A DNA stretch of 64,000 nucleotides. Origin: an uncultured archaeon (lineage in GTDB: Archaea > Iainarchaeota > Iainarchaeia > Iainarchaeales > CAZILS01). Below the pieces are notes generated by a model. It saw only the letters and a list, made by a program, of their open reading frames with translations. It was not told the origin of the DNA and ran no database searches. The translations under genes were made by a program, and so were the position numbers. Positions 6,489 through 42,564 of this stretch are shown here, in pieces (position 1 is the first letter of the stretch; every line of letters begins with the position of its first letter). The stretch is taken from assembly GCA_964540145.1 (NCBI GenBank), contig CAZILS010000001.1:277540-341539 (forward strand), in the 5' to 3' direction.

Positions 6489-7238
6489 CTATCCCCCGAA
6501 AATAATTTTTGTGAGCCACATTATCCCTATTCCTGTGAGGAACACAATAAAGTTCAGCGCAAGTTTCCTTGTTTCCGTTATTTTCCTAAGTTCGGGGAGC
6601 AGGTCAGAGCTCGCAATATAGATGAAGCCCCCTGCCGCAACCGCAAGCAGGATTACCTGCAGGCCGCCGAACTGCGCGGCGGCAAAGTATCCCGCAACCC
6701 CCCCAAGAACTGCGGTCAGCGCGGTTGCCAGGTTCAGCGCAAGCGCCTTTCCTTTTGAGAAACCGCCGTAAACCAGGACTCCAAAATCCCCTATCTCCTG
6801 CGGTATCTCGTGGAATGCTATCGCAATCGTTGTGGCTATCCCCAGCGGCACGCTCACAAGGAAGCTTGCGGCTATGACAAGGCCGTCGATGAAATTATGG
6901 ATTCCGTCCCCCACAATGTTCATATATGTGAAAGTGTGGATATCGCACTTGCCCTTGTGGCAATGGCGCCAGTGCAGGATTTTCTCAATAAGGAAGAACG
7001 CAACAAAGCCCGCCAGCGCCCACAGGAAAACGTCAATTCCCGCAGCCCCGGCTATCTCGACTGCTTCAGGCAAAAGATGGAGGAAAGCGCCCCCCATCAG
7101 CGCCCCGGCGGAAAGCGCAACCAGGAGCAGCACAAGCCTGTTAAGAAGCCCCTCCTTCATTGAAAGGAAGAATATCCCTATGAGTGAAATAAGGCTGACC
7201 GCCAGCGTCGCCCCGACTATCCATAATATGGTTTCCAT
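6489..7238 (-). CDS. zupT: ZIP family divalent metal (zinc) transporter
   Basis: Multi-TM protein. It carries the HEIPQEIGDFGVL signature of ZIP/ZupT transporters and a His-rich loop (HWRHCHKGKCDIH). Confidence 0.85.
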   Translation of the reverse strand: METILWIVGATLAVSLISLIGIFFLSMKEGLLNRLVLLLVALSAGALMGGAFLHLLPEAVEIAGAAGIDVFLWALAGFVAFFLIEKILHWRHCHKGKCDIHTFTYMNIVGDGIHNFIDGLVIAASFLVSVPLGIATTIAIAFHEIPQEIGDFGVLVYGGFSKGKALALNLATALTAVLGGVAGYFAAAQFGGLQVILLAVAAGGFIYIASSDLLPELRKITETRKLALNFIVFLTGIGIMWLTKIIFGG

Positions 7239-8518: not shown

Positions 8519-9439
8519 CTACTTTCCCTTCTGTTCTTTCAGCCACTTTTTCCGGAGCGGAGCTGCTTTTTTATATTTCGCCTCAAATGCCTTTGCGGCA
8601 GCAGCGTCGCTCGCATAAAGCACCTTGAAGAAGCACCTTCTCCCGAAGGGGCCCATCGCCAGCACCGCATCGTATGTGGGGAACGGAGCATATTTTCCCG
8701 CAAGTATCTGCGAGGCAAGCCCGTCCAAAGCCACGCTGCCTGCCGTAAGTATCATCCTGCCTCTCCCGCCCAATTCCCTGGCTATTTTTTTCCTTATAAT
8801 TTCGCCTGTTTTTTCGTCGACATGGGCCATAAGGGTGTCCCTGTCTTCGGCAGGGAGCCTTGCCGCGAGAAGCCCGGCCATTGCGGGCGTTATTTTCCTG
8901 CTGTTAAGCCGGTTTATTAAATCTCCAACATTCACATCCGCTTCCTTCTGCCATCTCATAATCAAGTCTGCGCTTGCCTCTCCGCGCGGCGCACTCTTCA
9001 GGGCCTTTGCAGCACTCCATGCGAGCCATGGCGCTTTCATTATGATTTCCTTGAGGTTTTTCATGTTTTTCCTGTGCTTTGTTTTCCCGTAGTAAAATGA
9101 AACCCCGTTTGCCACGACCGCTGCGGTGAACAGCGTTGCCAGCATCGTGCCTGTTTCGGCAGCAGCCTTGCCCCATGGTTCCCCCCTCAAAACCTTTTCC
9201 TTCCAGGCCTCGGCAGCCCCGCCAAGGACAACGCCCTTAAGCCAGGTTTTCATATCCACATTCGCCTTGTTTGTGATGTCAAGGCCTTCCTTTGCCCTCC
9301 TGGAAAGCACCTTGTGCGATTCCTCAAGGTCCATCTTCTTCAGCGCCTCAACCTTATTCCGGTGGTAGCGCAAATCACTGATTAGTTTCGGGTATGTGTA
9401 GATTTTCCTGTGGGGTTGCCGCGGTTTTTTCGGCGCCAT
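8519..9439 (-). CDS. Hypothetical protein
   Basis: 306-aa ORF with coding-like composition and no competing ORF. No family recognised. Confidence 0.5.
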   Translation of the reverse strand: MAPKKPRQPHRKIYTYPKLISDLRYHRNKVEALKKMDLEESHKVLSRRAKEGLDITNKANVDMKTWLKGVVLGGAAEAWKEKVLRGEPWGKAAAETGTMLATLFTAAVVANGVSFYYGKTKHRKNMKNLKEIIMKAPWLAWSAAKALKSAPRGEASADLIMRWQKEADVNVGDLINRLNSRKITPAMAGLLAARLPAEDRDTLMAHVDEKTGEIIRKKIARELGGRGRMILTAGSVALDGLASQILAGKYAPFPTYDAVLAMGPFGRRCFFKVLYASDAAAAKAFEAKYKKAAPLRKKWLKEQKGK

Positions 9440-14061: not shown

Positions 14062-15864
14062 CTAGAATATGCCCTCAAGCAGTTTTTTTACCAGCTCGGC
14101 CTTCATGCTTTCCGGCTCTGTCCTGATGTTCACCGCAAACCTGAGGAAGTTCCCGAAGTTGATATTTTCCACATTGTTGATAATGTTCATGAGGTCATCC
14201 AGCGGCATAATCAAGCCTAAGTCCGCATTGTCATACAAGCCATCCCTAACCTTCACAATAAACCCGTTTTCTATGTCCACCTTCAGGTTTATCGTCCTGC
14301 TGTTCACTTCATCCTCGACCTTGAAGTTAACCTTATCCATGCCCCCAAACAGGGTTTGGAACAAAGGATTGGAGTTCAGGAAACTCACGATTGCCTCCGC
14401 ATCCAAACCATACTCCTCAGCGACATCGCTTTCCACTATTCTTCCCGCAGGGCCGGGCTCTTCTTCTTGAGGGGGCTCTTCCCCCGGCTCTGTTTCCTCA
14501 TCTTCCTCTTCTTCAGGAGCAGGCTCAATTTCTATATCTGAAAATACATACTCTCTCGCACAACCCATAGAATCAAACACCTTGTCTTTCTCCTCTCCTC
14601 TAAGTTCAAACTCTTCATCGACGCAGGTCATAGTCATCGCATAAGTCAGATAATTGCAGTATTCAAGTTTTGTCACAGCCTTTACCACATACTCATCCCG
14701 GTAGCCAAAAGAATATTCAAGCAACTCCTCCCCATCTGAACTTTCAAGGCCGTAAGTATTATTGGTTCTGAACTCGTTCTCAAGCCACTCGTACATGGAA
14801 TCCTTGGGAGTGTTATACTTGCTCAGGGTGAAGCTGCAGCTCCCCCTGTTAACCGCCTTGACAGTCTCCACTTCCCGATTTGCGGCAGCAGCCCACTCAG
14901 GCATCCTAACTGAGAAGTCTTCCTGCCTGAACAAAGCATAGGTAGTAGGTTTCTCTTCTTCGATGAGAGGCTCCTCATACGCCCTAAGACACGAGAGTGA
15001 AGACAATGCTCTTTCCATTACCTCTCCCTTGATGCCAAAATCTTTCTCAGAGCAGGCAACAACTGCCCTATATGTCTTGCCGTTGCAGTAAACCATCCGC
15101 ATCTTGACAAGGCTTTCCCCTGTCTCAAAGTCTATCTCCAAATCACCCTCATCATAAGTTGCACCTACCACGCCAGGAGCATTCTCAAGGTAGGCTTTGC
15201 TGTGTTCAAAAAAACCAGTTGCCGTTGCATCATACGCATCTACGGAAACCAAGCAGCTTCCTTCCCTCACCGCAAACAAAGTCTCATCATGATATTCTGC
15301 TTTGCTCTCCTGCCATTCAGGATATTCCATAACAAGGTCCTCTTCCTTAAAGCCGGAATACTCCTGCGCCTCTATGTCCTCTTGCCCATACTCATCCATG
15401 CTCTTTGAGCATTCCGCACTCGCTAGGAAACTGTCCATAACTTCCTTCTCTTTTAGTTCCTGTGGGCAAGAGAATGAGGCGGTGTATGTCTTCCTGTTGC
15501 AGTAAACAAGTTTCAGTTTTGAGTACAAGGGAGTTCCCTCATAGGGCATGACATACTCGGCAGTTAAGTTACTCTTATCCTTTGAGACAAGTTCTGCATC
15601 TTCCGCACTTTCCATGTTCTTTACTATCGCATCGAAGAAGCCATCTGCATCCATATCAACAGTGCTTACAATAACCACGCATTCCCTAAGGACCTTTACC
15701 TTCTCATTGTCGTTCTTGTCTTCCATCTCTGCCCAATCAGGATACTTTACAGAGTAATCCCCTTCCTCAAACTCCAGGAACTCAGTTGCCTTGCCCGGAT
15801 CCTCAGCACACCCGCCGAGCATAACCCCCGCCAACAGCACCAGAACAATCAATATTCGCTTCAT
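14062..15864 (-). CDS. Secreted lipoprotein with three ~125-aa Cys-containing tandem domains, an acidic linker and a C-terminal globular domain
   Basis: Signal/lipobox MKRILIVLVLLAGVMLGGC. There are three internal repeats, each with (Y/M)P(D/E)W...C...(V/E)YCNxxTY...C...C. These are followed by an EPAPEEEEDEETEPGEEPPQEEEPG linker. Confidence 0.7.
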   Translation of the reverse strand: MKRILIVLVLLAGVMLGGCAEDPGKATEFLEFEEGDYSVKYPDWAEMEDKNDNEKVKVLRECVVIVSTVDMDADGFFDAIVKNMESAEDAELVSKDKSNLTAEYVMPYEGTPLYSKLKLVYCNRKTYTASFSCPQELKEKEVMDSFLASAECSKSMDEYGQEDIEAQEYSGFKEEDLVMEYPEWQESKAEYHDETLFAVREGSCLVSVDAYDATATGFFEHSKAYLENAPGVVGATYDEGDLEIDFETGESLVKMRMVYCNGKTYRAVVACSEKDFGIKGEVMERALSSLSCLRAYEEPLIEEEKPTTYALFRQEDFSVRMPEWAAAANREVETVKAVNRGSCSFTLSKYNTPKDSMYEWLENEFRTNNTYGLESSDGEELLEYSFGYRDEYVVKAVTKLEYCNYLTYAMTMTCVDEEFELRGEEKDKVFDSMGCAREYVFSDIEIEPAPEEEEDEETEPGEEPPQEEEPGPAGRIVESDVAEEYGLDAEAIVSFLNSNPLFQTLFGGMDKVNFKVEDEVNSRTINLKVDIENGFIVKVRDGLYDNADLGLIMPLDDLMNIINNVENINFGNFLRFAVNIRTEPESMKAELVKKLLEGIF

Positions 15865-20196: not shown

Positions 20197-20886
20197 CTAC
20201 CAAAGGTCGGCAAGCGGCATGAAAACGAATTTGCCTTTTTCCACCCCTACAAACAGCAGGTTGCCGAACCCGAACCTTGACGCCGAAGAGGCGGCATTGG
20301 CGGCGGTGAGATATCCCTCAAGGGTGAATTTGTGCCTGCGCATCATCTTCTCCAGGTGTTTCCTGCCCCTTTCCGTCGGCATCCATTCTTCCAGGGTTTC
20401 CTCAACCGAAGGAAAGTCCACCTTTGGCATTGCGATAAGGTCCCCGGCAATGGCCTCCGCAGGCAGCTCCCTCAGGACAAAAGGGCGGCCTTTCTCCGGC
20501 CTGCCGAATTTCTTAATCCTGTCGCGGATGATTTCAATAATTTTTTCCGCCTTTTTTTTGTCGTTGTCGGAAATCGAGCCTGTGCCGCCATGAATCCTTT
20601 TAATCACAAGTTCCGTTTCCGGGAACGACCTCTTGGCATTAAGCTTCCTTATCCTGAATGTCGGCATTTCGGTTATGTTGCCGGTTGTGAAACGCTCGTC
20701 CCCGAACCACCAAACCCTTTCCCGCCCCTCCCTGCCCTCATAGGCGGCCGGGGCCCTGTGGTCGGCATTCTCCATTTTCGCAAGCAGCCTGTATCCCCTG
20801 TCCAGGTTCCCCTTCCTCTCCTGTTCCTTTTTCGCAAGCCGCCTGAGCCTCTCGACAAGCCTCCTCGGCAGGGGTTTAGGCATCAT
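20197..20886 (-). CDS. Hypothetical protein
   Basis: ORF 20197..21024. I trimmed it to ATG 20886 (MMPKPLP...) because the longer form overlaps the lysA start. No family recognised. Confidence 0.45.
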   Translation of the reverse strand: MMPKPLPRRLVERLRRLAKKEQERKGNLDRGYRLLAKMENADHRAPAAYEGREGRERVWWFGDERFTTGNITEMPTFRIRKLNAKRSFPETELVIKRIHGGTGSISDNDKKKAEKIIEIIRDRIKKFGRPEKGRPFVLRELPAEAIAGDLIAMPKVDFPSVEETLEEWMPTERGRKHLEKMMRRHKFTLEGYLTAANAASSASRFGFGNLLFVGVEKGKFVFMPLADLW

Positions 20887-20950
20887 GGCAATAAAAGCGC
20901 GCAGGTAATATTTAAAATATCGTATAAACACATTCTGTTGGGCTTTTTGA

Positions 20951-22189
20951 ATGTGGTTTGAGCGCGAGGGAAACCTGGAAGTGAGGGGGAACAGGCTGTT
21001 TTTTGGAGGTCTCGAGGCGGGCAAAATTGCGGAGAATTATGGAACCCCTATTTACGTTTACAATCTCGATGAGGTTAGCGCAAATTACAAAAAGATTTCC
21101 AATGCATTCAAGGAAGCCGGAAAAACAGCCCGCATCCACTATGCGATGAAGGCAAACCCAAATACAGATATCCTGCGCACATTGCTAAAGGAAGGCGCCT
21201 ACATTGATGCTGTCTCCCCGCAGGAAGTGAAGCATGCGATTTCTGCCGGTTTTCCCAAGGAAAAAATACTCTTCACAGGCACCTCGGTAAGCAACACAGA
21301 CCTTCTCCGCCTTGCCGGCACAGGCGTAACTATAAACGTAGATTCCTTCTCGCAGATGAGAAGGCTCGCCAAGATGAAGGTTCCGAACAAAAAGATTTCC
21401 ATCCGATGGAACCCCAGCGAAGGCGCAGGCCTGCACGAGCACGTTATCACCGCAGGCAAATACATCAAGTTCGGCATCCCCGAGAAGATGATACTGATGG
21501 CTGTGCAGGAGGCAAGGGCGCTCGGCTTTGAGGTTATAGGTCTGCACCAGCACATTGGCAGCGGCTGGCTGGGAAAAGACGTTGACACATTCCTCAAGAC
21601 AGTTTCAAAAACCCTTGAAATTGCGAAAAAGGCGGAGGAGCTCCTCGGAAAAAAACTTGAGTTTGTAGATTTCGGCGGCGGCCCGGGAATCCGGTACTGC
21701 GGCAGTGACAGGGAATTTCCCTTCGAGAAGTACGCGAAGGGCATCGTTTCAGCCTATAAGAAATCCGGCCTTAAGTGCGAAATCGCAGTCGAGCCCGGCA
21801 GGAGCATTGTGGGCAATGCAGGCATCCTCCTTGCGCAGGTAAATACTGTCGAGGAGAAGAACGTTCCTGTTATCGGGGTTGATGCGGGCTTCAACGACCT
21901 TGTAAGGCCGGCAATGTACTCTTCCTTCCATGAGATAGTCGTCTGCGAAAATGTAGGGGGCAAGGAAAGGAAGAAGTTCCTGGTTGCCGGAAATTTGTGC
22001 GAATCTGGAGATGTGTTCAACACCTCAAAGAAGGAATTGAGGGAACTTCCCTTGCCGAAAGAGGGAGACCACATAGCAATCTTGTCGGCAGGCGCTTACG
22101 GCTACTCGATGGCCTCCACTTACAACATGCGCCCTTTGCCGAACGAAGTAGTAATTTCGAAGGGAAAGGCGCGGCTTTCAAAGGGATAA
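20951..22189 (+). CDS. lysA: Diaminopimelate decarboxylase (group IV PLP decarboxylase)
   Basis: YAMKANPN (PLP lysine), HIGSG, GGGPGIRY, EPGRSIVG and CESGD motifs. Confidence 0.85.
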   Translation: MWFEREGNLEVRGNRLFFGGLEAGKIAENYGTPIYVYNLDEVSANYKKISNAFKEAGKTARIHYAMKANPNTDILRTLLKEGAYIDAVSPQEVKHAISAGFPKEKILFTGTSVSNTDLLRLAGTGVTINVDSFSQMRRLAKMKVPNKKISIRWNPSEGAGLHEHVITAGKYIKFGIPEKMILMAVQEARALGFEVIGLHQHIGSGWLGKDVDTFLKTVSKTLEIAKKAEELLGKKLEFVDFGGGPGIRYCGSDREFPFEKYAKGIVSAYKKSGLKCEIAVEPGRSIVGNAGILLAQVNTVEEKNVPVIGVDAGFNDLVRPAMYSSFHEIVVCENVGGKERKKFLVAGNLCESGDVFNTSKKELRELPLPKEGDHIAILSAGAYGYSMASTYNMRPLPNEVVISKGKARLSKG

Positions 22190-22229: not shown

Positions 22230-22643
22230 TCATTTTCTTGCCATGCTTCTTTCCGGCCTCTGCCCACGGCGCCCTGCGCCAATTCCGCCGCGGTTGCGCC
22301 CTCTTCCTCGGCCTATCCCGCCGCCGCGCCCTGCCGCAGCCCCAGTAGCGCCGTAAAACTCGTAATTTCCCCCTTCCACCCTGATTGCCTTCCCGTTCAC
22401 AATCGCATCCGCAAGGGTTTCTCTCGCCTTTTCAAGCAGCCTGTGCAGCGTCGGCTGGCTAACGCCCATTTGCTCTGCCGCCTCGCTCTGCCCCAATTTC
22501 TCCAAATCGCAGAGCCTTACCGCCTCAAGGCCCTCTAAGTTTAAGACAGCCTCCCCAAGCCCGGCAAGCGGCAGGCCTGCGGGCTTGAAGTAGGTTGTTT
22601 GCGGGCTGAATGAAACCCGCCTTGGTATGGCAGGCCTTGGCAT
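22230..22643 (-). CDS. DUF134 (UPF0251) putative HTH DNA-binding protein with Gly/Arg-rich tail
   Basis: RRVSFSPQTTYFKPAGLPL...EAVRLCDLEKLGQSEAAEQMGVSQPTLHRLLEKAR...GKAIRVEGG matches the DUF134 pattern. Confidence 0.8.
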   Translation of the reverse strand: MPRPAIPRRVSFSPQTTYFKPAGLPLAGLGEAVLNLEGLEAVRLCDLEKLGQSEAAEQMGVSQPTLHRLLEKARETLADAIVNGKAIRVEGGNYEFYGATGAAAGRGGGIGRGRGRNRGGIGAGRRGQRPERSMARK

Positions 22644-22870
22644 TATTCCTTCTCCAGTTCCTGAATTTCCCTTTCAATTGCCTCTTTCTCAGCCCTGAGA
22701 ACCCTGATTCGTTCCTCTTTTGGCCGGCCTGCGGCGTACGCAAACCTTCCGCGGCGGATTCCGCGCCCTGCGTCAAATCCCGCGGCGCCTCTCGCGCCCC
22801 TTCCGCACGGTCCCATTCCTCTTCCTAGCGGGCCTGTTCCGTAAGGCCCTGTCCCGTCAAATCCCGGCAT
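22643..22870 (-). CDS. DUF5320-like small protein (Gly-rich N-terminus plus coiled coil)
   Basis: ORF 22643..23020, trimmed to ATG 22870. Sequence MPGFDGTGPYGTGPLGRGMGPCGRG...LRAEKEAIEREIQELEKE. The stop and start codons are shared with the DUF134 gene. Confidence 0.65.
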   Translation of the reverse strand: MPGFDGTGPYGTGPLGRGMGPCGRGARGAAGFDAGRGIRRGRFAYAAGRPKEERIRVLRAEKEAIEREIQELEKE

Positions 22871-23061
22871 ATTTACCGCCTCCTTAATCCTTTTTACAGC
22901 CGCCCCTTCCGTGGCCCGCACCTTTTCCCTTGCGGCCCATCTCGTGCATGCGGCTTCCTTTTCTCGGTCCTGTTCCGTCCATATTCGGCATGTTATCATC
23001 TCCCTGTGGCTTTGCCACAATATGTCGCCTATAATGAATATATATTCATAATAATATTTAA

Positions 23062-23826
23062 ATGTTCGCTTTCCCTTATTTTCGCATGGAGCCCTATCTC
23101 GGGAGAACAGGACGATATTGGGAACTTGATTTTATTAGGGGGCTTGCGGTCATAGCAATGGCCCTCTTCCACCTCCTCTTTGACCTCAACTATTTTGCGG
23201 GGCAGTCCTTCAGCCTTGACTCCGGCATCTGGTTCTTCGTGGGGAGGTTTTCGGGCACAGCATTCATCTTCCTTGCAGGGGTTTCTCTAACCCTGAGCTA
23301 TTCCCGAGTTTCGGGTCTTTCCCAAAAACAAATCAACTCCGGTTTCCTAAGGAGGGGACTGAAAATATTCCTCTATGGGATGGCGATAACAGTTTTCACC
23401 CTCCTCGCTTTCCCGCAGGAGACAATCCTTTTCGGGGTTCTCCACCTCATAGGCCTATCGATAATCCTCTCGGCGCCCTTTCTGAAACTCCGGGGGAAGG
23501 AGAACCTCTTTCTGGGCACAGTAATTATTGTTCTTGGATTAATCGTTTCAACAATGCGCTTCGGTTTCCCCTGGCTTCTCTGGCTTGGCCTAACCCCCTT
23601 AAACTTCATTACTTTCGATTACTTTCCATTGCTTCCCTGGTTCGGCCTTGTGCTCCTCGGGATATTCTTCGGCAAGTTATTGTATCCGCGGGGAAAAAGA
23701 AAAATTGAAATCGTGGATTTTTCAAAATCTATTTTGGTTAGAGCCGTGTGTTTCATCGGAAGGAATTCCCTGCCAATTTATTTCCTCCACCAGCCGATAA
23801 TTGTGGCAATAATCCTGCTTATTTGA
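23062..23826 (+). CDS. DUF1624 / heparan-alpha-glucosaminide N-acetyltransferase-like membrane protein
   Basis: ELDFIRGLAVIAMALFH N-terminal motif. Multi-TM protein. Confidence 0.65.
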   Translation: MFAFPYFRMEPYLGRTGRYWELDFIRGLAVIAMALFHLLFDLNYFAGQSFSLDSGIWFFVGRFSGTAFIFLAGVSLTLSYSRVSGLSQKQINSGFLRRGLKIFLYGMAITVFTLLAFPQETILFGVLHLIGLSIILSAPFLKLRGKENLFLGTVIIVLGLIVSTMRFGFPWLLWLGLTPLNFITFDYFPLLPWFGLVLLGIFFGKLLYPRGKRKIEIVDFSKSILVRAVCFIGRNSLPIYFLHQPIIVAIILLI

Positions 23827-24673
23827 CGGGGACTTTCGCAAGAACTTCTTTGAGTTCATCTGCCGCCTTTGCCCCTGTTTCAAGAACAGGGGTGAGCAAA
23901 ACAATCGCGTCAACAACCCCCCTGTCATAGCTAATTTTTCCCGCCAGTTTTTCACCGGCAAACTTTTCTATCTTTTCGGAAAACCCGGGGTTGATATCCC
24001 ACCGGTTTATTATTATGCAATAGGGCACCTTGAAATGGTTCACGACCGTAAGCACACGCTTCAGGTCGCTAAGGCCGCTCGGGGTGGGCTCGGTAACAAG
24101 AACCGCGTAATCTGTATTGACCACTGCGGCATTTACCGTGCAGCCTATCCCTGCGGCGGCGTCCAGCACCATAACCTCGTGTTCTCTCCTGTCCGCTTCC
24201 TTCCTAACCTCCGCAACTATCTTCCCGCTGCACCTCTCCCCCGGAAAGAGTTTCCCTGAAATGAGCGGGAAATCCAAATCCTTCTCGTTGGACTGCACAA
24301 GCCCGTTGTAAACCTTCCGCATGTTCACGGTCCCTGCGGCAGGGCATACAATCTTGCACACCTCGCAGCCCTCGCAGAGCAGCCTGTTCACGGCATATTT
24401 CCCCTCTTTTTTCTCGATAGCACCGAACCTGCATTTTTGGAAACACCTCCCGCACGCTATGCACGTTTCCGCATTTATTTCCGCCTTTATGCTCGTCGAA
24501 ACCTTCCTCTCGTTTTCAAAAGTATTCACGCCCAGCCACAGGCCAAGGTTCGCGGCATCAACATCGCAGTCGACCGCAACAACTTTTTTTTCCTTGGACA
24601 GGAGAAGCGCAAGGCTGCTTGCAACCATGCTTTTTCCAACACCCCCCTTGCCCCCGGCAACAACCACCTTCAA
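23819..24673 (-). CDS. MinD/ParA-type P-loop ATPase with inserted 2x[4Fe-4S] ferredoxin domain
   Basis: P-loop GGKGGVGKS. Two ferredoxin motifs, CIACGRCFQKC and CEGCEVCKIVCP. Confidence 0.85.
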   Translation of the reverse strand: MKVVVAGGKGGVGKSMVASSLALLLSKEKKVVAVDCDVDAANLGLWLGVNTFENERKVSTSIKAEINAETCIACGRCFQKCRFGAIEKKEGKYAVNRLLCEGCEVCKIVCPAAGTVNMRKVYNGLVQSNEKDLDFPLISGKLFPGERCSGKIVAEVRKEADRREHEVMVLDAAAGIGCTVNAAVVNTDYAVLVTEPTPSGLSDLKRVLTVVNHFKVPYCIIINRWDINPGFSEKIEKFAGEKLAGKISYDRGVVDAIVLLTPVLETGAKAADELKEVLAKVPVK

Positions 24674-25494
24674 AGCAGCCCCTCCAGCCCTTCCAATTTT
24701 CCCTTGGAGTATGCCTCTATAACTTCCCTGCTATAGGGAATTTCAAACGAAATTTTTGTTTTGTGTTTTTTCGCAAGCCGGTAAATGAGTTTTTTATCCC
24801 CGACAGTGCTCTTGTTCACCACGATTTCCGCCGGCACCCCCATTATCCCAATCAGCTCAAGCATCAGCCCCAAATCATATTCCCCCAAAGGGGTTGGCTC
24901 GGTGACCCCGAAAATTTTTTCAGAACCAACCAATGCGCTTATTACCGAGCAGTGCATTCCCGCGGCGCTGTCAACAATAATGAAATCCGCCCTTTCCCTC
25001 TCCGCAGCCTTGTCTGCAGCAGTCTTTGTTTTTGAAACAACCCGGCTTGTTTCTGCCAGGCCCTCCCTACTTCTCCCGCTAACGAGGAGAATGTTCTTAT
25101 TTATCCTGTTCTCAAAAACCTCCCCGACCATTACCTCTCTTGCGGAGATTGCGCCCTGCGGGCACGCAACAAAACAGGCGCCGCACGCATCGCACAAATT
25201 GTCGAAGAACTCGGGCTGTTTTCCGCTTGCCCAAAATATTGCGTTCCTTGTGCACGCCTTTGCGCACATCCCGCACTTAACGCATTTTCCTTTATCTGCT
25301 TTTGGATAGTCCAGCGTTATTCCCTTTCCGGATTTGAGTTCCTTTCCCAGCAGCAAATGGCAGTTGGGGCATTCGACATCCGCGTCAACCAAAACAACTT
25401 TTTTCCCTTCCTTTGCAAGCTTAAGCGCATAAAGCACGGAGAAAGTGCTCTTTCCCGTTCCCCCCTTGCCCCCTGTCACCGCAATCCTCTTCAC
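24670..25494 (-). CDS. MinD/ParA-type P-loop ATPase with inserted 2x[4Fe-4S] ferredoxin domain (paralogue)
   Basis: P-loop GGKGGTGKS. Ferredoxin motifs CVKCGMCAKAC and CDACGACFVACP. It overlaps its neighbours by 4 nt. Confidence 0.85.
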   Translation of the reverse strand: MKRIAVTGGKGGTGKSTFSVLYALKLAKEGKKVVLVDADVECPNCHLLLGKELKSGKGITLDYPKADKGKCVKCGMCAKACTRNAIFWASGKQPEFFDNLCDACGACFVACPQGAISAREVMVGEVFENRINKNILLVSGRSREGLAETSRVVSKTKTAADKAAERERADFIIVDSAAGMHCSVISALVGSEKIFGVTEPTPLGEYDLGLMLELIGIMGVPAEIVVNKSTVGDKKLIYRLAKKHKTKISFEIPYSREVIEAYSKGKLEGLEGLL

Positions 25495-26258
25495 AGCGAG
25501 GGCCTCCTTTTCCTGGTTTCTTCAATATCAAGCACCTTTACCTCGGGCCTTTCCTTATCGTAGATTGAAATCGCATTAAGGCCCCGTCTCCCGAACTCCC
25601 CTTTGATTTCCATAATCTCCTTCATCCCAAGGGGTTTTTCCCTGCTTGGCCGGTATGGCGTGTTTATCTCCACCTCGTCCGGCATTATATCCATGGCAAG
25701 CTCCGCAATTTCGCCTGCCCTGTCCCTGTTCCTTTCAAGGAACATGCACTGCAGCGCAAACTTTCCCTTAAACCCTTTCCTGAATTTCTTGATTCCCACA
25801 AGGGTGTTTTCAAACGTTATTCCCTTAACAGGAACATTTATCTCTTCAAACAGTTCCTGGTTTGGCGCATCAAGCTTCGCAACAACCTCATCAGCCCCCG
25901 AAAGCTCCCTCCGCACATCCTTCTCCCCCAGAAGGCTTGAGTTTGTCAGAACCGCAATCGGCAAATCAGTTAGGCGCTTCGCAATGCCGATGCACTCCCC
26001 GATGTTTTTTGCGAGGGTGGGCTCCCCGCTCCCGGAAAAGGTCACGATGTCGGCCTCCGCAAGTTTCAGCGCATCCTCAAGGCTTTTTTCCGCCTCCGCA
26101 CTCTCCACAAACAGCCCCCTCTCCGCTGTTTTATTTATGGTTTTCCCAAGCTGGCAATAGGTGCAGTCGAAACTGCATGCCTTCGGCCCGCAGATAAGGT
26201 CAATCCCCAAACTCCTGCCAAGCCTCCAGGATGCAACAGGCCCATAAACTGTTTTCAT
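25491..26258 (-). CDS. Radical SAM protein (small, 255 aa)
   Basis: CSFDCTYC (Cx3Cx2C) follows an N-terminal YGPVASWRLGRSLGIDL motif. A GSGEPTL SAM-binding motif is present. Confidence 0.8.
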   Translation of the reverse strand: MKTVYGPVASWRLGRSLGIDLICGPKACSFDCTYCQLGKTINKTAERGLFVESAEAEKSLEDALKLAEADIVTFSGSGEPTLAKNIGECIGIAKRLTDLPIAVLTNSSLLGEKDVRRELSGADEVVAKLDAPNQELFEEINVPVKGITFENTLVGIKKFRKGFKGKFALQCMFLERNRDRAGEIAELAMDIMPDEVEINTPYRPSREKPLGMKEIMEIKGEFGRRGLNAISIYDKERPEVKVLDIEETRKRRPSL

Positions 26259-26268
26259 CCTTGGCCCC

Positions 26269-26607
26269 CTAATGGGTGTGCTGGCAGACAGGCGCCCCGC
26301 CTTTCAATTCTCCTGAAAGGTATTTAGAGATTACTTTATCCACATCCCCGTCAACACCCGCAACAACCTCTATCCCAAGCTCCCCGAACAAGCCTGCTGC
26401 TCTCGGCCCTATTCCGCAGGTTATTATCCTTTTCACGCCCTTTTCGGAGAGGAATTTTGGGAGGAAAAACGGCTCATGCCCCGGGTTTGGCACCTCTTTC
26501 CTCGCAACCTCCTTGCCGTTATTCTCCTCGAAAATCACGTACTTCTCACAGCGCCCGAAATGCGCGCTTACTTTTTTCCCGTCAACCGAAACCGCGACCT
26601 TCATCAT
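26269..26607 (-). CDS. NifX/NifB-C-terminal-like (dinitrogenase FeMo-cofactor-binding fold) protein
   Basis: MKVAVSVDGKKVSAHFGRCEKYVIFE...GIGPRAAGLFGELGIEVV matches the Nitro_FeMo-Co domain pattern. Confidence 0.8.
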   Translation of the reverse strand: MMKVAVSVDGKKVSAHFGRCEKYVIFEENNGKEVARKEVPNPGHEPFFLPKFLSEKGVKRIITCGIGPRAAGLFGELGIEVVAGVDGDVDKVISKYLSGELKGGAPVCQHTH

Positions 26608-26996
26608 TGCGCCCCCATCGTGCCGGCGGCCTTGCCCCTGCCGAATTCCCCGGGCTCCTTTATTTCCTCAAGCCCGCCCTTCGCAAGTTTCGCAACAGCC
26701 TCCGTTATCTTCATTCCCCCGGCAGAATAAACCTTTATGCCGGCCTTGTCCAGCGGGCCGAATGCATTGGGCCCCATGTTCCCCGTCAAAACCGCCTCAA
26801 CACCCTTTCCCGCAACGGTATTTGCGGCAATCATCCCCGCCCCGCCGGCGGCATTTATTCCCGCATTTTCGACAAATTCGCTTTTTTTTATCTCCCCGTC
26901 CTCAACTTCAAGGATTAGGAAACCGGCACACCTCCCGAAAACAGGGGTAACATTCCCTTCCGGGCTGTCGGAACCTGCGCTTACCGCAACTTTCAT
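26604..26996 (-). CDS. NifX/NifB-C-terminal-like (FeMo-cofactor-binding fold) protein (paralogue)
   Basis: MKVAVSAGSDS...VTPVFGRCAGFLILE...AGGAGMIAANTVAGKGVEAVLTGNMGPNAFGPLDKAGIKV. Confidence 0.8.
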   Translation of the reverse strand: MKVAVSAGSDSPEGNVTPVFGRCAGFLILEVEDGEIKKSEFVENAGINAAGGAGMIAANTVAGKGVEAVLTGNMGPNAFGPLDKAGIKVYSAGGMKITEAVAKLAKGGLEEIKEPGEFGRGKAAGTMGAQ

Positions 26997-27059
26997 AATA
27001 TCGCCTCCGATTAGAATATTGATTAACTTTACATAAAGGTTATGGTTGTTGGATATTTT

Positions 27060-27461
27060 TCAAGCTTGCCATTTTTCCATGCCGAGCCTTTCGATTGCCG
27101 CCTTAGCATCTCCTATCCTGAAAAGGTGGCTTCTGCATTTGCAGTCGGAGCAGCCGAATTTCGGGACAGGCTCTCCAACCTGTCCAAGAATTTGTGCAAT
27201 TTCACATTCTTTTTTCCCCGCCCCTTCCGAGAAATATACTTCCCCCACGGAAACACCGCGGCCGGCAAGCAGATAGTCTATGTGCCAGTGCATTTTCTTG
27301 CCCTTTTTTTTGAGGTGCCTTCCTATCCTCCCCTCCAATGAGTTCATCGCACTGCCCACATAGGCATACATGCCTTCCCTGAATTCAATTTCTCCAAGCG
27401 AGCCTACTTTTACCAACTGCCTTTTTGGCACCCTGGCCAGGAGGACATAGGTTCCCTTCAT
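27060..27461 (-). CDS. DUF123 / GIY-YIG (Uri) superfamily nuclease-like protein
   Basis: GTYVLLARV...GMYAYVGSAMNSLEGRIGRHLKK...HWHIDYLL is typical of the archaeal DUF123 family. Confidence 0.75.
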   Translation of the reverse strand: MKGTYVLLARVPKRQLVKVGSLGEIEFREGMYAYVGSAMNSLEGRIGRHLKKKGKKMHWHIDYLLAGRGVSVGEVYFSEGAGKKECEIAQILGQVGEPVPKFGCSDCKCRSHLFRIGDAKAAIERLGMEKWQA

Positions 27462-27929
27462 TTAAGGGCATCCCCCCTCCAGTTTCCTCTTCAGCCAGCC
27501 GATTTTTTCCGCCTTCTCCCCCCCTGTGAATCCGGGAATACAGGGCTTTATGTCAAGGAGGGGCGTATTGTCAAGCATGTCAACACCGCTTACCTTCAGG
27601 GTGTTTCCCTCTTTCCCAAGGAGCCTTACCTCTGAAACCCCTATCGGGTTGGGCCTCCGGGGCGCCCTTGTGGCAAAAAGCCCCCTCTCCTTTTTATCAA
27701 GGAAAGGCCTTACCTTGAGCCTGAAACCTTCCGACCGGTGGAAGGCATAAATGAGCATTATCCTGGAAAATCCCCCGACATCGTCCAGGCCTTCCGCATA
27801 CTCGGGGAAAACCTCCACCCTGCCTTCCTCATTGGACCTTGAGGGCTGTATCGGGGTTTCCCCCTTTTTTGAGAAAGGGGTGTGTATAATTCCTATCGGT
27901 TTCATCCTGAAGTCCATGTTCCCCCTCAA
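27462..27929 (-). CDS. trmO: tRNA (adenine37-N6)-methyltransferase TrmO/TsaA family
   Basis: PIGIIHTPF...TPIQP...FATRAPRRPNPIGVSEVRLL...VSGVDMLDNTPLLDIKP motifs. Confidence 0.8.
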   Translation of the reverse strand: MRGNMDFRMKPIGIIHTPFSKKGETPIQPSRSNEEGRVEVFPEYAEGLDDVGGFSRIMLIYAFHRSEGFRLKVRPFLDKKERGLFATRAPRRPNPIGVSEVRLLGKEGNTLKVSGVDMLDNTPLLDIKPCIPGFTGGEKAEKIGWLKRKLEGGCP

Positions 27930-28369
27930 AACTTAACCTGCTCCTCTTTTAGGGTGTTCAGGATTATCTGTGTTTCAGTGCGCTCGATAAAGTCATAGGT
28001 CTGTATCTTCTTGATGAATGCATCGAACGCCTGCCTGTTCCTGTGCCTCACAAGGACAACAACATCCCACGGCCCCGTGACATCATAAACCGCGCAGACA
28101 TTCGGGTTTACCGCAATCTTCCTCTCGACCTCGAACAGCTTTCCCTTCGAAACCTTGACTGTGACAATCGCCTCAAACTCGTAGCCCATCTTTGGATAGT
28201 CAAATATCGCGGAATACTTCCTTATAACCCCTTTCTCTTCCAACGCCTGTACCCTCTTTATCACAGTCCCTGTCGCAAGCTTTGCCCTCTTGGCAAGCTT
28301 ATTGAAGGACATCCTTGCGTTCTTCACCAATTCGTTCAAAATAGCCGCGTCATTTTTGTCAATTTGCAT
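27926..28369 (-). CDS. lrp: Lrp/AsnC family transcriptional regulator
   Basis: N-terminal HTH (DKNDAAILNELVKNARMSFNKLAKRAKLATGTVIKRVQALEEKGVI) followed by a RAM domain. It is divergent from glnA. Confidence 0.85.
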   Translation of the reverse strand: MQIDKNDAAILNELVKNARMSFNKLAKRAKLATGTVIKRVQALEEKGVIRKYSAIFDYPKMGYEFEAIVTVKVSKGKLFEVERKIAVNPNVCAVYDVTGPWDVVVLVRHRNRQAFDAFIKKIQTYDFIERTETQIILNTLKEEQVKF

Positions 28370-37413: not shown

Positions 37414-37605
37414 TCAATGCATTTCTGTAAAGATTGTTTTGTTTTTGAAAAGTCTTTGCCGGTTAAATCTCCGTAATTGCATTAGTTCGATTGATTGCTT
37501 TTTTCCAAGTTCTGGCAATTCTCCTTGTTGCCAGCCTGTGTCAAGCCTTTTCTCGTTGTCTATTGTTGTGCCATGAACAAAATAGGTTATCTTACTGGTT
37601 CTCAT
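37414..37605 (-). pseudogene. N-terminal fragment resembling a histidine-phosphatase (phosphoglycerate-mutase-like) family protein
   Basis: 63-aa ORF. ITYFVHGTTIDNEKRLDTGWQQGELPELGKKQ resembles the xRHGxTxxN...GW N-terminus of the family, with the Arg replaced. It is truncated after about 45 homologous residues. Confidence 0.3.
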
Positions 37606-38605
37606 TTAATCGTTTCTTCACTTTTTTCAACAGTTTTTCAATTATGAGTTTCTTGTTTTCTTTTATTACCTCTTCTATTTCTTTTGCTCTTTTTTCCAGG
37701 CAGGAAACCACAAACTTAGTGAACTTATAATACTGTTTTGATAGCTGGACTCTTTCAAGCAATACAATGTAGCTCTGCCTGTTTCCCAAATTGATTATTG
37801 CCCTTGGAAAGCCTTCTTTTTGCAGTGCCCAGTTCAGTATCTCTCTTCCTGCCCTGCCGTTTCCGTCTCTGAATGGGTGAATGTGTTCAAATCTTGCGTG
37901 GAACTCCGAAGCCAATTCAATAATATGTTTTTTACCTTTTTTGTGCCATTCAACCAGTTTTTCCATCTCTTTCTCCACGTCTTTCGCTTTAACCGGTTTT
38001 ACTTTTGACGCCTGGATGAATATCGGCCCGTCCCTGTATTCGCCTGGCTTTTTGTCCTTGAAGCCGTCCATTATCGCAGCGTGAATCTTCCTGATGCCCC
38101 TTTCGTTCATTTCTTTTATCTTACCCGAAACCTTTGCTGCTTTTTTCATGTTTTCGATTTCTTTTATTTCATCAAGTTTTTTTCCCGCTACTGATGCGCC
38201 CTTTGTCAGGACAATGTTTGCTTCCTGCAAACTCAAAGAATTCCCTTCAACCGAAGCGCTTCCCTGCGCATACCTTACAAACTCGTCTTCCTTGAATGAT
38301 TCAAATCCCTCCGGAAAAAAGTCTTTCATTATTTTAAAATCAACTTTCAGTCTTTCAAGGGCCAGCAGGTCAGAAAAGGACAAAACATTCAAATCAAATT
38401 CCTTTTGGCTTTTCTTCGCGTTCTCCAACGCCTTTTTTCTTATCAGTTCATCAAATGCGTTTTCTGTTTTTTCTTCCACTTGCGTTTTGTTGCCGAGAAA
38501 GAAACTAACCCGTTTACCATCTATTCTGTCCTCTAAGTAAAAGTAGTCTTTTCCTTTGATTTTGCGTTTTGAAACAAACATACAATATTTAACACCAGAA
38601 AACAT
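37592..38605 (-). CDS. Fic/DOC family protein (probable AMPylase) with N-terminal inhibitory helix motif
   Basis: Fic core HPFRDGNGRAGR. SASVEG matches the (S/T)xxxE(G/N) autoinhibition motif and lies upstream of the core. Confidence 0.85.
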   Translation of the reverse strand: MFSGVKYCMFVSKRKIKGKDYFYLEDRIDGKRVSFFLGNKTQVEEKTENAFDELIRKKALENAKKSQKEFDLNVLSFSDLLALERLKVDFKIMKDFFPEGFESFKEDEFVRYAQGSASVEGNSLSLQEANIVLTKGASVAGKKLDEIKEIENMKKAAKVSGKIKEMNERGIRKIHAAIMDGFKDKKPGEYRDGPIFIQASKVKPVKAKDVEKEMEKLVEWHKKGKKHIIELASEFHARFEHIHPFRDGNGRAGREILNWALQKEGFPRAIINLGNRQSYIVLLERVQLSKQYYKFTKFVVSCLEKRAKEIEEVIKENKKLIIEKLLKKVKKRLNENQ

Positions 38606-38826
38606 TAAAAAGCAACATGTTAGTCTTTATGGTGATAACTCGTTTTTTGGCTCTTTCCGCTCGGCGTGATTAGTGTAATCCCGCCTCCTCGAAGATGGAG
38701 GCGTACTTTAAAATTAATTCCCGCCTCCCAACCTCCATCTCTGATTGCAACTCCCGACATTTTCAGCCATTGCTTACCTTGAGCCAGTTAATTTGTTTTA
38801 AATATTCTTAAGGATTAGTTGTTATT

Positions 38827-39249
38827 ATGGAGAAGAAATTTTACTTGGACACTGCCATCTGGCGGGACTATTTTGAGGACCGAAAAGACGGCATCAGGCC
38901 ATTGGGGGAGTTTGCTTTTCAATTCCTGAAAAATTGCGAGAAGAAAGGCTGCCTGGTTTTGTATTCTGAGTTTGTTGTCCATGAATTGAAAAAGGATTAT
39001 TCTGATGAAAAAGTAAAGCTGGTTTTTTCTTCTTTTCAGGACTTTCTTGTTGAAGTTCCTATTTTGCCTGAACAGTATTTGGAAGCCAAGAAATTGGCGA
39101 GTCAGAAAAAGGGTTCTCACGAAACAGACATTTTACATGCTATTCTGGCAAGAGACAACAAGGCTGTTCTGGTTACGAGAGATGCTCATTTTGACTGCTT
39201 AAGAGGCCTTGTTGAAATTAGTATGCCGGAAGAAATTACTTTTGATTGA
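38827..39249 (+). CDS. PIN-domain protein (VapC-like ribonuclease toxin)
   Basis: KFYLDTAIW (first acidic residue), ETDILHA, and LVTRDAHF (last acidic residue). 140 aa. Confidence 0.7.
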   Translation: MEKKFYLDTAIWRDYFEDRKDGIRPLGEFAFQFLKNCEKKGCLVLYSEFVVHELKKDYSDEKVKLVFSSFQDFLVEVPILPEQYLEAKKLASQKKGSHETDILHAILARDNKAVLVTRDAHFDCLRGLVEISMPEEITFD

Positions 39250-41478: not shown

Positions 41479-42564
41479 CTATTCAAAGAACTTGTGGTAT
41501 GTGGTGTGCAGGAGCTTCTTCGCCTTCGCACTGCCCGGCTTCCCAAGGAAGTCCTTGTACAGCTTCTTAACCGAGGGGTTTTCCGAGGCTATCCTCTTCT
41601 TTTTCCCCTTGTCAATCCTGTACAGTGCGTCTTTCCTCTTTTCAATTATGTCAAGGGTTGTCCTCGGCTGGCCCGCGCCCCCCACACACCCGCCGAAACA
41701 CGCCATGCATTCTATGATGCCAAATTCCTTTACTCTTTCAGCGTCATTCAATAACTGCGAGGCATACCTCAACCCATTTATCACCGCAACCTTTATTTTT
41801 TCCTTTCCAATCCTGACTTCGGCCTCCTTAATCCCCTCAAGACCCCTTACCTCCCTGAACTCGATAATCCCAACCGTTTTGCCGGTTATTTTCGCGGCAA
41901 GCCTCAGCACAGTTTCAAGAACTCCGCCTGTTGCGCCGAAAATATTTGCGGAGCCTGTCGATTCCCCCAGCAGGGAATCAAATTTGCTTTCCTTAGCCTT
42001 CTTTAGGTCCAGCCCCCTTTGCTTCAGCAACCCCGCAAGCTCGACTGTTGTAAGCACCTTGTCAACGTTCCTCCTGCCTTCAACCCTTAGCTCGGGCCGC
42101 ATCGCCTCCGCCTTCTTGATTATGCACGGCATTACCGAAACAACATAAATATCCTCCGGCTTCAGCTTCTTCTTCTGCGCAAAGTATGTTTTTATCAGCG
42201 CGCCCATAACCTCCTGCGGGCTCCTGCAGCTGCAGAGGTTATCAACGTATTCGGGGTGGGTGTGTTCGATGTAACTGACAAAGCCGGGGCAGCACGATGT
42301 CATTATCGGCAGCTTCCCCCCCTTCTTTTTCCTCTCAAGGAATTCGTAGGTTTCCTCCATTGTCACTATATCCGCGCCTGTGCAGGTGTCGAAAACAGCG
42401 TCAAACCCGAGTTCCTTCAAAACCCCAACCAGTTTCCCTGTAACAATTTTTCCCGGCTTATAGCCGAACTCCTCCCCGATGGAAACCCTCATAGAGGGCG
42501 AGGTCTGCACAACAAGGAATTTCTTCTTCGAGTCAAGCTCCTCAACCACTTTTTCAAAGCCCAT
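41479..42564 (-). CDS. hydA: [FeFe]-hydrogenase catalytic subunit, H-domain only (minimal form)
   Basis: H-cluster motifs TSCCPGF (L1), VMPCIIKKAEA (L2) and ECMACFGGCVGGAGQP (L3), plus FGATGGVLE and VRGLEGIKEAEV. There are no N-terminal ferredoxin-type Cys motifs. The ORF track gives 41479..42738. I prefer ATG 42564 (361 aa) because a TATA box lies about 20 nt upstream and the longer form overlaps the divergent gene. Confidence 0.85.
   Translation of the reverse strand: MGFEKVVEELDSKKKFLVVQTSPSMRVSIGEEFGYKPGKIVTGKLVGVLKELGFDAVFDTCTGADIVTMEETYEFLERKKKGGKLPIMTSCCPGFVSYIEHTHPEYVDNLCSCRSPQEVMGALIKTYFAQKKKLKPEDIYVVSVMPCIIKKAEAMRPELRVEGRRNVDKVLTTVELAGLLKQRGLDLKKAKESKFDSLLGESTGSANIFGATGGVLETVLRLAAKITGKTVGIIEFREVRGLEGIKEAEVRIGKEKIKVAVINGLRYASQLLNDAERVKEFGIIECMACFGGCVGGAGQPRTTLDIIEKRKDALYRIDKGKKKRIASENPSVKKLYKDFLGKPGSAKAKKLLHTTYHKFFE

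Follow-up and report, generated by a model that had tools for sequence, protein, structure and literature searches.

The stretch of archaeal DNA analysed here, 64,000 nucleotides from an uncultured member of the Iainarchaeota (contig CAZILS010000001.1, positions 277,540 to 341,539; hereafter the window), carries a gene cluster of the orange protein (ORP) type, an assignment that follows from its clean pattern of orthology to ORP loci of the Desulfovibrio gigas type. This DPANN version of the cluster probably serves the general iron-sulfur (Fe-S) and metal homeostasis of strict anaerobes through ATP-driven handling of metal sulfides, and is probably not a dedicated hydrogenase maturase. A radical S-adenosylmethionine (SAM) gene appears to have been taken into the operon in the lineage of the window, genes for TrmO-like and DUF123 proteins precede the core, and a DUF134 helix-turn-helix protein with a DUF5320 partner appears to replace the sigma-54-dependent activator OrpR. 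The genes concerned are the following.

27926-28369, minus strand: Lrp/AsnC regulator, 147 amino acids (aa)
27462-27929, minus strand: TrmO-like class VIII SAM-binding beta-barrel protein, 155 aa, N-terminal domain only
27060-27461, minus strand: DUF123 protein, 133 aa, between the TrmO-like gene and NifX130
26997-27059, minus strand: 63-nucleotide spacer upstream of NifX130
26604-26996, minus strand: NifX130, NifX-fold protein of the ORP/MTH1175/IssA type (Orp8-like), 130 aa, first gene of the core operon
26269-26607, minus strand: NifX112, NifX-fold protein of the Orp5 or MrpORP C-terminal (Di-Nase) type, 112 aa
25491-26258, minus strand: radical SAM enzyme of an uncharacterised family, 255 aa, single cluster
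24670-25494, minus strand: ATPase B, MinD/NifH-class P-loop protein with an inserted 2x[4Fe-4S] ferredoxin domain, 274 aa
23819-24673, minus strand: ATPase A, MinD/NifH-class P-loop protein with an inserted 2x[4Fe-4S] ferredoxin domain, 284 aa
23062-23826, plus strand: HGSNAT-type membrane acyltransferase, between the core block and DUF5320/DUF134
22643-22870, minus strand: DUF5320 protein, 75 aa, with corrected start
22230-22643, minus strand: DUF134 (UPF0251) helix-turn-helix protein, 137 aa

Orthology was assessed by taking the sequence of D. gigas ORP from a Protein Data Bank (PDB) alignment, searching for its orthologues and comparing the genomic contexts of these (loci L085 and L086; such numbers are our own handles for retrieved loci) with the window by BLASTP. 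Beside an orthologue that is 75% identical to D. gigas ORP (L085), the genes run in the order DUF134, a Gly/Arg/Gln-rich open reading frame (ORF) of 112 aa, ORP, ATPase 1, ATPase 2 and a small NifX. In these two loci NifX130 finds its best match in ORP itself (36% identity), NifX112 in the small NifX downstream of the ATPases (31%), ATPase B in ATPase 1 (34%) and ATPase A in ATPase 2 (34-36%). The best match of the DUF134 protein is the DUF134 encoded beside the D. gigas-type ORP gene of L085 (54% identity).

The original prediction, made from the letters of the window without database searches, held that no cofactor or phenotype had been assigned to these genes. This proved wrong, as the set corresponds to the ORP complex of Desulfovibrio (PMC6345978, PMC8359166); its general idea of a system that handles metalloclusters is upheld. 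Orp3 and Orp4 of D. vulgaris are paralogues (41% similar), both carrying two [4Fe-4S] ferredoxin motifs; Orp8 is homologous to the orange protein, and Orp9 is MrpORP, a fusion of Mrp and NifX (PMC6345978, PMC8359166, PMC4641369). Orp3, Orp4 and Orp8 co-purify, and Fe-S is loaded onto the complex by MrpORP; homologues of Orp8 hold a non-covalent [S2MoS2CuS2MoS2] cluster, which D. gigas ORP assembles from thiomolybdate and for which Fe, Co, Ni or Cd can substitute (PMC6345978). The small protein Orp5 has a homologue that binds [2Fe-2S] (PMC6345978, PMC8359166). Expression of the orp genes is confined to low redox potential (PMC8359166), and loss of OrpR, a sigma-54-dependent, redox-sensing activator, leads to morphological defects (PMC6345978, PMC8359166, PMC4641369). 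An archaeal copy of the ORP genes, AF2378-AF2380 of Archaeoglobus fulgidus, is constitutively and highly expressed (PMC3949148).

The window has in common with the Desulfovibrio complex a paralogous pair of MinD-type ATPases with two [4Fe-4S] motifs each, an ORP-type NifX-fold protein accompanied by a second small NifX-fold protein with Cys/His motifs, an operonic arrangement and a distribution restricted to anaerobes. It differs in the radical SAM gene inserted between the NifX and ATPase genes, in the TrmO-like and DUF123 genes upstream, in identities of only 31-36% (54% for DUF134) and in the Mrp-NifX fusion (Orp9), which the complex has and the window lacks. No gene for an enhancer-binding protein of the OrpR type is present at the cluster, where DUF134 occupies the position of the regulator. 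Archaea lack sigma-54, and control through sigma-54/OrpR is accordingly absent from this archaeal window; the DUF134 protein is the probable dedicated regulator. The ORP system as such is known, and what is new here is in the detail: an archaeal version controlled by DUF134, with radical SAM, TrmO-like and DUF123 accessories and no Mrp fusion in view.

Conservation of the cluster was examined from two anchors. The scan around the radical SAM gene, with one genome per species, covered 80 loci, 79 of which contain an orthologous radical SAM ORF (phmmer with the window proteins); neighbours were counted within 8 kb, and the counts are lower bounds because many contigs are short. An ORP-type ATPase or NifX gene lies near the radical SAM gene in 43/79 loci, and both do in 31/79. 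A TrmO-like gene is nearby in 30/79, DUF134 in 22/79 and DUF123 in 19/79, and the [FeFe]-hydrogenase gene hydA in 0/79. With few exceptions, the radical SAM gene and the ORP genes of a locus share one strand. In metagenome-assembled genomes (MAGs) of Syntrophoarchaeum, Halobacteriota and Thermoplasmatota (L009, L045, L050 and L066) the radical SAM gene is located between the ATPase genes with overlaps of 4 nucleotides, and it is also found there, with other junctions, in a Methanophagales MAG (L030). The scan of metagenomes around the ATPase yielded 74 loci, 20 of them with at least 5 kb of flanking sequence on both sides. In these well-flanked loci the ATPase is accompanied by a NifX gene in 19 cases, by DUF134 in 13 and by DUF5320 in 5; HydA accompanies it in none of the 20 and in none of the 74 overall. 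The core genes are repeatedly found in one order and orientation in both archaea and bacteria, and the co-occurrence of the cluster genes is far beyond chance. The ATPase pair and the NifX-fold proteins form a fixed core, with DUF134 as a common regulator, with or without DUF5320, and the radical SAM, TrmO-like, DUF123 and Mrp genes are accessories that move in and out of the operon.

In the closest relatives, whose radical SAM proteins are 59% identical to that of the window, iron and metal genes surround the cluster. One locus has the order DUF134, cation diffusion facilitator (CDF) transporter, DUF5320, NifX, NifX, ATPase, ATPase, Mrp-type ATPase, radical SAM, encapsulated-ferritin-like, FeoB and DtxR/FeoA. 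The other reads FeoB, DtxR/FeoA, dehydrogenase, ZIP, DUF134, an unannotated ORF, CDF, TrmO-like, a further unannotated ORF, NifX, NifX, radical SAM, ATPase and ATPase. A CDF transporter fused to an MTH1175 domain has been described in a Fur-controlled operon of Acidithiobacillus ferrooxidans (PMC1874648). Additional neighbours that recur in the 79 loci, identified from cluster-representative sequences and not HMM-confirmed (HMM, hidden Markov model), are metallo-beta-lactamase-fold proteins (29/79), SAM methyltransferases (27/79), thioredoxin (19/79), pyridine-nucleotide disulfide oxidoreductases (18/79), IscU/NifU-like proteins (14/79), CutA (13/79) and DUF89 (9/79).

According to the ORF list, the core is transcribed from the minus strand in the order NifX130, NifX112, radical SAM, ATPase B and ATPase A. 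The NifX130 and NifX112 genes overlap by 4 nucleotides, 10 nucleotides separate NifX112 from the radical SAM gene, and overlaps of 4 nucleotides link the radical SAM gene to ATPase B and ATPase B to ATPase A. Further along, the DUF5320 stop and the DUF134 start share one base (TAATG). The tight coupling of the minus-strand genes (overlaps of 4, 4, 4 and 1 nucleotides), the shared stop and start and all seven domain calls had been put forward in the original prediction; each was confirmed, the domain calls by profile HMMs from Pfam and NCBIfam. For the extent of the cluster, the content given for 22230-26996 stands, whereas the upstream limit should be moved to about 27929, with the TrmO-like and DUF123 genes included because both recur with the radical SAM gene. 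The upstream block on the same strand is unbroken through DUF123, TrmO-like and AsnC/Lrp (junctions of 63, 0 and -4 nucleotides), the Lrp/AsnC gene overlapping the start of the TrmO-like gene by 4 nucleotides. The AsnC/Lrp gene is possibly the first of the transcription unit and its membership is uncertain; it is scarcely conserved, occurring near the radical SAM gene in 1/79 loci. The HGSNAT gene, which is convergent to the core block and overlaps it, rarely accompanies the cluster (1/79 radical SAM loci and 0/74 ATPase loci).

ATPases A and B are 35% identical to each other and match CbiA/MinD (2.4e-16 and 3.6e-15, respectively) as well as Fer4 families in Pfam; behind the switch-I region, both carry an insert with two CxxCxxCxxxC ferredoxin motifs. 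Invariant residues were identified by aligning 13 archaeal and bacterial orthologues and by comparing the paralogous pair of the window. These comprise the deviant Walker A motif GKGGTGK[ST], the switch I DxD (D37 and D39 in B), the eight ferredoxin cysteines, the Walker B aspartate (D175 in B) and the next glycine (G179 in B), together with one cysteine three residues past that glycine (Cys182 in B, which aligns with Cys178 in A). ATPase B also carries the archaeal CPNC motif. From the spacing of the motifs, Cys182 and Cys178 would belong to switch II, and A and B most likely form a heterodimer. A PDB search found no solved structure that covers this ATPase subfamily. The deviant Walker A SIMIBI fold is shared with NTPases of the Mrp/NBP35/ApbC, CooC and HypB types, as is a presumed metal or cluster site at a dimer interface controlled by nucleotide, and Mrp-type genes are found inside clusters related to that of the window. 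In contrast to Mrp/NBP35, the window ATPases are missing the C-terminal CxxC and have the inserted 2x[4Fe-4S] domain.

Both small carriers belong to the Nitro_FeMo-Co family (Pfam, 4.3e-22 for NifX130 and 6.3e-19 for NifX112). The best solved relatives of NifX130 in a PDB sequence search are MTH1175 (1EO1, 9.5e-25) and D. gigas ORP (2WFB, 6.8e-13); its isoelectric point (pI) is 5.2 and it ends in a short GRG tail of about 15 residues. NifX112 matches PH0822 (2YX6, 7.4e-16) and positions 264-365, the C-terminal domain, of the NCBIfam model for MrpORP (NF041136, 4e-25). It contains an HFGRCE motif and a C-terminal CQH, comparable to CxHFGHCE and CDH in MrpORP. A further likeness is to IssA, the thioferrate storage protein of Pyrococcus furiosus, with which NifX130 shares the IPR003731/NifX fold. 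IssA and MTH1175 have been grouped together within the NifX-fold domain family, in what is proposed as an IssA clade, and IssA stores Fe and S as anionic thioferrate by means of a Gly/aromatic/cationic tail (PMC5524996). IssA and the cluster would also be alike in the non-covalent binding of anionic inorganic Fe-S species, and relatives of the window cluster sit in an iron-homeostasis context. The tail of IssA is in cis, whereas in the window the Gly/Arg/aromatic cationic sequence is on separate proteins, DUF5320 and the tail of DUF134. It is possible that this sequence is a trans-acting counterpart of the IssA tail, which we offer as an idea and not as a result. The passages searched of the IssA study contain no link between IssA and the ATPase pair (PMC5524996).

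The radical SAM protein matches Radical_SAM in Pfam (8.8e-13) with a CSFDCTYC motif, in which C28-x3-C32-x2-C35 forms the CX3CX2C signature and supplies the only invariant cysteines of the family; the N-terminal hairpin reads YGPVxSWRLGxSLGxD. At E<=1e-5 the family counts 6426 clusters with a uniform protein length of about 255 aa, and 12 diverse members show a mean column identity of 65%. Named homologues come from several DPANN lineages, Thermoplasmatales, Syntropharchaeia and Petrotogales, the nearest being from Woesearchaeota (58% identical). The protein falls far below all NCBIfam cut-offs (tungsten-cofactor maturase, 40.6 vs 380 bits; MoaA, 31.6 vs 325; TYW1, 22.1 vs 318), HydE and HydG are absent from its NCBIfam matches at E<=0.01, and it has no extra conserved cysteine. 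Its AlphaFold2 model is confident (pLDDT, the predicted local distance difference test, 94.8) and finds NifB as best Foldseek match (E 2.3e-10, template modelling (TM) score 0.64). This search is not discriminating, with NifB, viperin, DesII, PFL-AE, TYW1 and RlmN all at TM 0.58-0.67, and since such diverse radical SAM enzymes score about alike the fold names no substrate. We rejected an identity as NifB, as ligands of the K1/K2 clusters are lacking and the three invariant cysteines all belong to CX3CX2C. A longer paralogue of about 310-320 aa, with a weak winged-helix-like C-terminal extension, is located in ORP clusters L112, L115, L146 and L158; the association with ORP is therefore shared by a second radical SAM clade. 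In L112 (13216-16243) and L115 (11804-14061) the gene for this paralogue lies beside genuine Mrp-NifX fusion genes of the MrpORP type, to which it is directly adjacent in L115.

Assembly of the nitrogenase cofactor by NifB, NifX/NafY and NifH offers a parallel, as radical SAM chemistry, NifX-fold carriers and SIMIBI-class ATPases are common to both systems. By motif spacing, and not from a superposition, we take the switch-II cysteine of the window ATPases to lie close to the position of Cys132 in NifH. In contrast, the window has no nitrogenase or NifEN genes, its radical SAM protein lacks K-cluster ligands, and NifH has no ferredoxin inserts of the kind that the window ATPases carry. It is conceivable, if very improbable, that the cluster performs a NifB/NifX/NifH-like remodelling of complex Fe-S species independently of nitrogenase, in which the TrmO-like protein would give a methyl group, the radical SAM enzyme would act on cargo held by NifX and the ATPases would supply ATP-gated electrons. 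If true, the product would serve metalloenzymes of strict anaerobes, conceivably including [FeFe]-hydrogenase in DPANN archaea that lack HydEFG.

For the preferred reading, an ORP cluster in Fe-S and metal homeostasis, we infer the following mode of action. Closing of the A:B pair would depend on nucleotide and would bring Cys182 and Cys178 of switch II together at the subunit interface, so that the closed interface may form a cysteine-lined metal or cluster site. Low-potential electrons would reach this site from the built-in ferredoxin domains, and hydrolysis of ATP could drive the loading, reductive mobilisation or hand-over of an anionic metal-sulfide species. The cargo, which may be Fe-S, thioferrate-like or a thiometallate, would be held non-covalently by the NifX-fold carriers, with the Cys/His residues of NifX112 as putative Fe-S cluster ligands. 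The radical SAM and TrmO-like proteins may constitute an accessory SAM-using module, to which the ATPases would act as reductant or Fe-S donor, or by which the cargo would be modified.

Several points weigh against this interpretation. The biochemical function of the ORP complex is unestablished even in Desulfovibrio, where altered cell morphology is the only phenotype (PMC8359166), and its Mo/Cu cluster may be adventitious. The Orp9-type fusion is missing from the window, whose 64 kb hold no other P-loop or NifX ORF, although related clusters do contain Mrp genes, either fused in this way or on their own. The published characteristics of IssA are an IPR003731 domain, a high pI and a long Gly-rich cationic C-terminal tail (PMC5524996); NifX130 has the domain, but it is acidic and its tail is short. 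The model built for ATPase B from two sequences is poor (pLDDT 49.5), and because of this the heterodimer and the suggested role of the switch-II cysteine at its interface are deduced purely from motif spacing. The radical SAM gene must be regarded as accessory since it is rare in the well-flanked ATPase loci, with the 255-aa type in 2/20, or 5/20 if the paralogue of about 315 aa is included. Finally, in Thermoplasmatota the radical SAM gene is paired with a TrmO-like gene in the company of CutA and DUF123, with no ORP genes within 8 kb.

This last arrangement raises the possibility that two modules lie side by side in the window, an ORP core and a radical SAM/TrmO-like/DUF123 set for SAM-dependent modification of nucleic acids or tRNA. 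No gene adjoins the radical SAM gene more often than the TrmO-like gene does (16/79 loci). The TrmO-like product matches TrmO_N in Pfam (2.3e-35) and exceeds the NCBIfam cut-off for TrmO (TIGR00104, 130 bits vs 93), with TrmO_N the only domain in its 155 aa, and the Joint Genome Institute labels the radical SAM family as wyosine synthetase. That label is at odds with a score of only 22 bits against 318 for the TYW1 model. Archaeal TrmO homologues bind SAM, but all are missing the C-terminal DPRxxY domain, which binds tRNA and on which tRNA methylation depends in E. coli; in the tRNA of archaea, m6t6A has so far not been detected (PMC4132733). A mere juxtaposition of modules is also difficult to reconcile with the rate of co-location (54%, far above chance) or with the radical SAM gene lying between ATPase genes with 4-nucleotide overlaps in several lineages. 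DUF123 (Pfam, 1.5e-29; GCxDCxCxSH motif conserved) behaves likewise in L097, where its gene (8739-9131) is situated between two ORP ATPase genes with overlapping stops and starts. We regard the two-module arrangement as unlikely.

The ORP cluster is a widespread, anaerobe-specific gene set, the biochemistry of which is unsolved despite more than a decade of work on Desulfovibrio, and the present analysis adds three handles. A radical SAM family and a TrmO-like protein recur in the operon in archaea, Chloroflexota and candidate phyla; the common regulator is DUF134 and not OrpR; and close relatives set the cluster among iron and metal transporters. Taken together, they point towards Fe-S or metal-sulfide trafficking rather than cell division. 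A redox-responsive, MinD-like system for cell division or positioning has been proposed for the Orp proteins of Desulfovibrio, and the window ATPases are members of the MinD family; inactivation of OrpR causes morphological defects, and MrpORP has a polar location in D. vulgaris (PMC6345978, PMC8359166). The same authors call the role unclear and possibly indirect (PMC8359166), and the genes near the window cluster include no MinC, MinE or FtsZ-linked genes, the neighbours being NifX-fold, Fe-S, metal-transport and redox proteins. We find a division system distinctly unlikely.

Handling of Mo, W or thiomolybdate, either for detoxification or for supply to Mo/W enzymes, would accord with the assembly of the D. 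gigas Mo/Cu cluster from thiomolybdate (PMC6345978) and with a role in the synthesis of Mo enzymes as proposed by the authors of the A. fulgidus work (PMC3949148). The cluster in ORP is, however, non-covalent and exchangeable for other metals (PMC6345978). There are no mod, moa, moe or Mo/W-enzyme genes in the window, and the called genes at the loci of close relatives showed none either; the neighbours there are Feo, DtxR, ZIP and CDF. A role specific to Mo or W is quite unlikely.

The original prediction had also linked the cluster, as a speculation, to a hydrogenase encoded further along the window.

41479-42564, minus strand: minimal [FeFe]-hydrogenase HydA, 361 aa, H-domain with a fused small-subunit domain

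It was correct that this gene has no HydE, HydF or HydG nearby, as none is visible in the 64 kb. The protein carries all three H-cluster motifs (TSCCP, MPCxxK and ExMxCxxGCxxG), and its nearest named relatives are from Diapherotrites (68%) and Micrarchaeota (63%). The 419-aa ORF includes an upstream extension; the database call is 361 aa. It corresponds to the group A1 enzymes of DPANN archaea, which average 363 residues and are active after artificial maturation (Greening et al., PMC11216029). The speculation meets a real gap, because most archaeal genomes with HydA lack HydEFG: the full set occurs in only 5 of 130, and an unknown pathway has been postulated (PMC11216029). An alternative route of H-cluster maturation for such maturase-less enzymes could be sought in the cluster, and several lineages with the radical SAM protein (Iainarchaeota, Micrarchaeota, Woesearchaeota, Altiarchaeales and Asgard) are also reported to have HydA; this overlap, however, is as expected for anaerobes in general.

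The proposed link to the hydrogenase was not borne out by genomic context. HydA is absent within 8-10 kb of the 79 radical SAM loci and the 74 ATPase loci, and in the window it is 15 kb from the cluster, with unrelated genes on both strands in between. Conversely, no ORP or radical SAM genes are found within 10 kb of HydA in two related genomes (HydA 68% and 54% identical). Desulfovibrio, the source of the studies on the ORP complex, has HydEFG, which also counts against a part in hydrogenase maturation. The cluster is also common in lineages that have no HydA. A. fulgidus is one of the cultured archaea with ORP genes, and among cultured archaea [FeFe]-hydrogenase is absent from all but Asgard enrichments (PMC3949148, PMC11216029). 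With HydE, HydF and HydG the cluster shares only the general logic of a radical SAM enzyme and an NTPase. Sequence kinship is limited to the common radical SAM core, and any likeness to HydE or HydG is at the level of noise; the radical SAM protein holds a single cluster without an auxiliary one, there is no GTPase, and nothing suggests a source of CO, CN or azadithiolate. A role of the cluster in H-cluster maturation is highly improbable.

The surroundings of HydA show features of their own. A ZIP transporter is encoded within about 2.5 kb of HydA in both related loci (L167, 7589-8356; L168, 11905-12669), and the HydA locus of L168 also holds a Fur gene. The ZIP gene of the window (6489-7238) is 35 kb from HydA. 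A patch of low GC content (37592-39249; 0.43 vs about 0.51) between the cluster and HydA contains genes for a Fic-domain protein (37592-38605) and a PIN-domain protein (38827-39249), and is possibly a small mobile or toxin-antitoxin island.

For the DUF134, DUF5320, DUF123 and archaeal TrmO-like proteins, the association with the ORP cluster provides a testable context. Literature searches returned no functional study of DUF134/DUF5320, or of TrmO with a radical SAM enzyme, in such a setting. The DUF134 protein (Pfam, 3.9e-25, with a Sigma70_r4-like helix-turn-helix) ends in an RGG-rich tail of 42 residues and has a pI of 12.0. The match to DUF5320 (5.5e-08, above the Pfam cut-off) lies in ORF 22643-23020. 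As it begins at residue 51 and AGGAGG is found ahead of ATG 22870, the true start is this codon and not TTG 23020. The N-terminal half of the DUF5320 protein is Gly/Arg/aromatic-rich and cationic (pI 11.3) with one cysteine; the C-terminal part is a putative coiled coil, as the original prediction had it. A DUF5320 gene or a Gly/Arg-rich ORF follows DUF134 in L028, L035, L063, L077, L079, L081 and L085. Just upstream of the DUF5320 gene, its leader contains a mini-ORF of 35 codons (22884-22991, minus strand; MPNMDGTGPRKGSRMHEMGRKGKGAGHGRGGCKKD) with its own GGGAG, which encodes the N-terminal MPxxDGTGP motif of DUF5320 and a cysteine and may represent a truncated second DUF5320 paralogue or a leader peptide.

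A perfect palindrome of 16 bp (ATGAATATATATTCAT, 23034-23049) lies in the AT-rich stretch from which HGSNAT and DUF5320/DUF134 diverge. It is unique in the window, with 0.17 expected by chance, and is a candidate operator for DUF134, or simply reflects the AT-richness of a promoter. A second inverted repeat (TGTGGCTTTGCCACA) is located at 23005-23019. No word of at least 8 nucleotides common to the regions upstream of DUF5320, NifX130 and AsnC, as expected of a shared operator, was found, and a scan for sigma-70 promoters and terminators gave no meaningful excess, its model being one that does not apply to archaea. The spacer at 26997-27059 contains a TATA-like element (TTTATGTAAA), and GGAGG precedes the NifX130 ATG by 7 nucleotides; judged on these elements, it may hold an internal archaeal promoter.

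A reading as anti-phage defence, with a prokaryotic viperin (pVip) and partner ATPases, was rejected and has next to no chance of being correct. The radical SAM protein gives a weak pVip match (32 bits) and its best PDB sequence match is viperin-like (5.5e-07). The pVip match is partial, spanning only residues 26-140 of the shared radical SAM core, the other genes match defence models only as generic P-loop or helix-turn-helix proteins, and the conserved neighbours are metal and redox genes.

Elsewhere in the window, three ORFs on the minus strand have no Pfam match: 8519-9439 (306 aa), 14062-15864 (600 aa) and 20197-21024 (275 aa). The last of these also has no NCBIfam match and overlaps a 209-aa ORF on the plus strand, so that its reality is uncertain. 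Pus10 is likewise encoded in the window. A PAS/GAF histidine kinase of 1137 aa is followed by a stand-alone receiver domain protein on the plus strand (46953-50776), which we take to be a sizeable sensory system for a DPANN-type genome.

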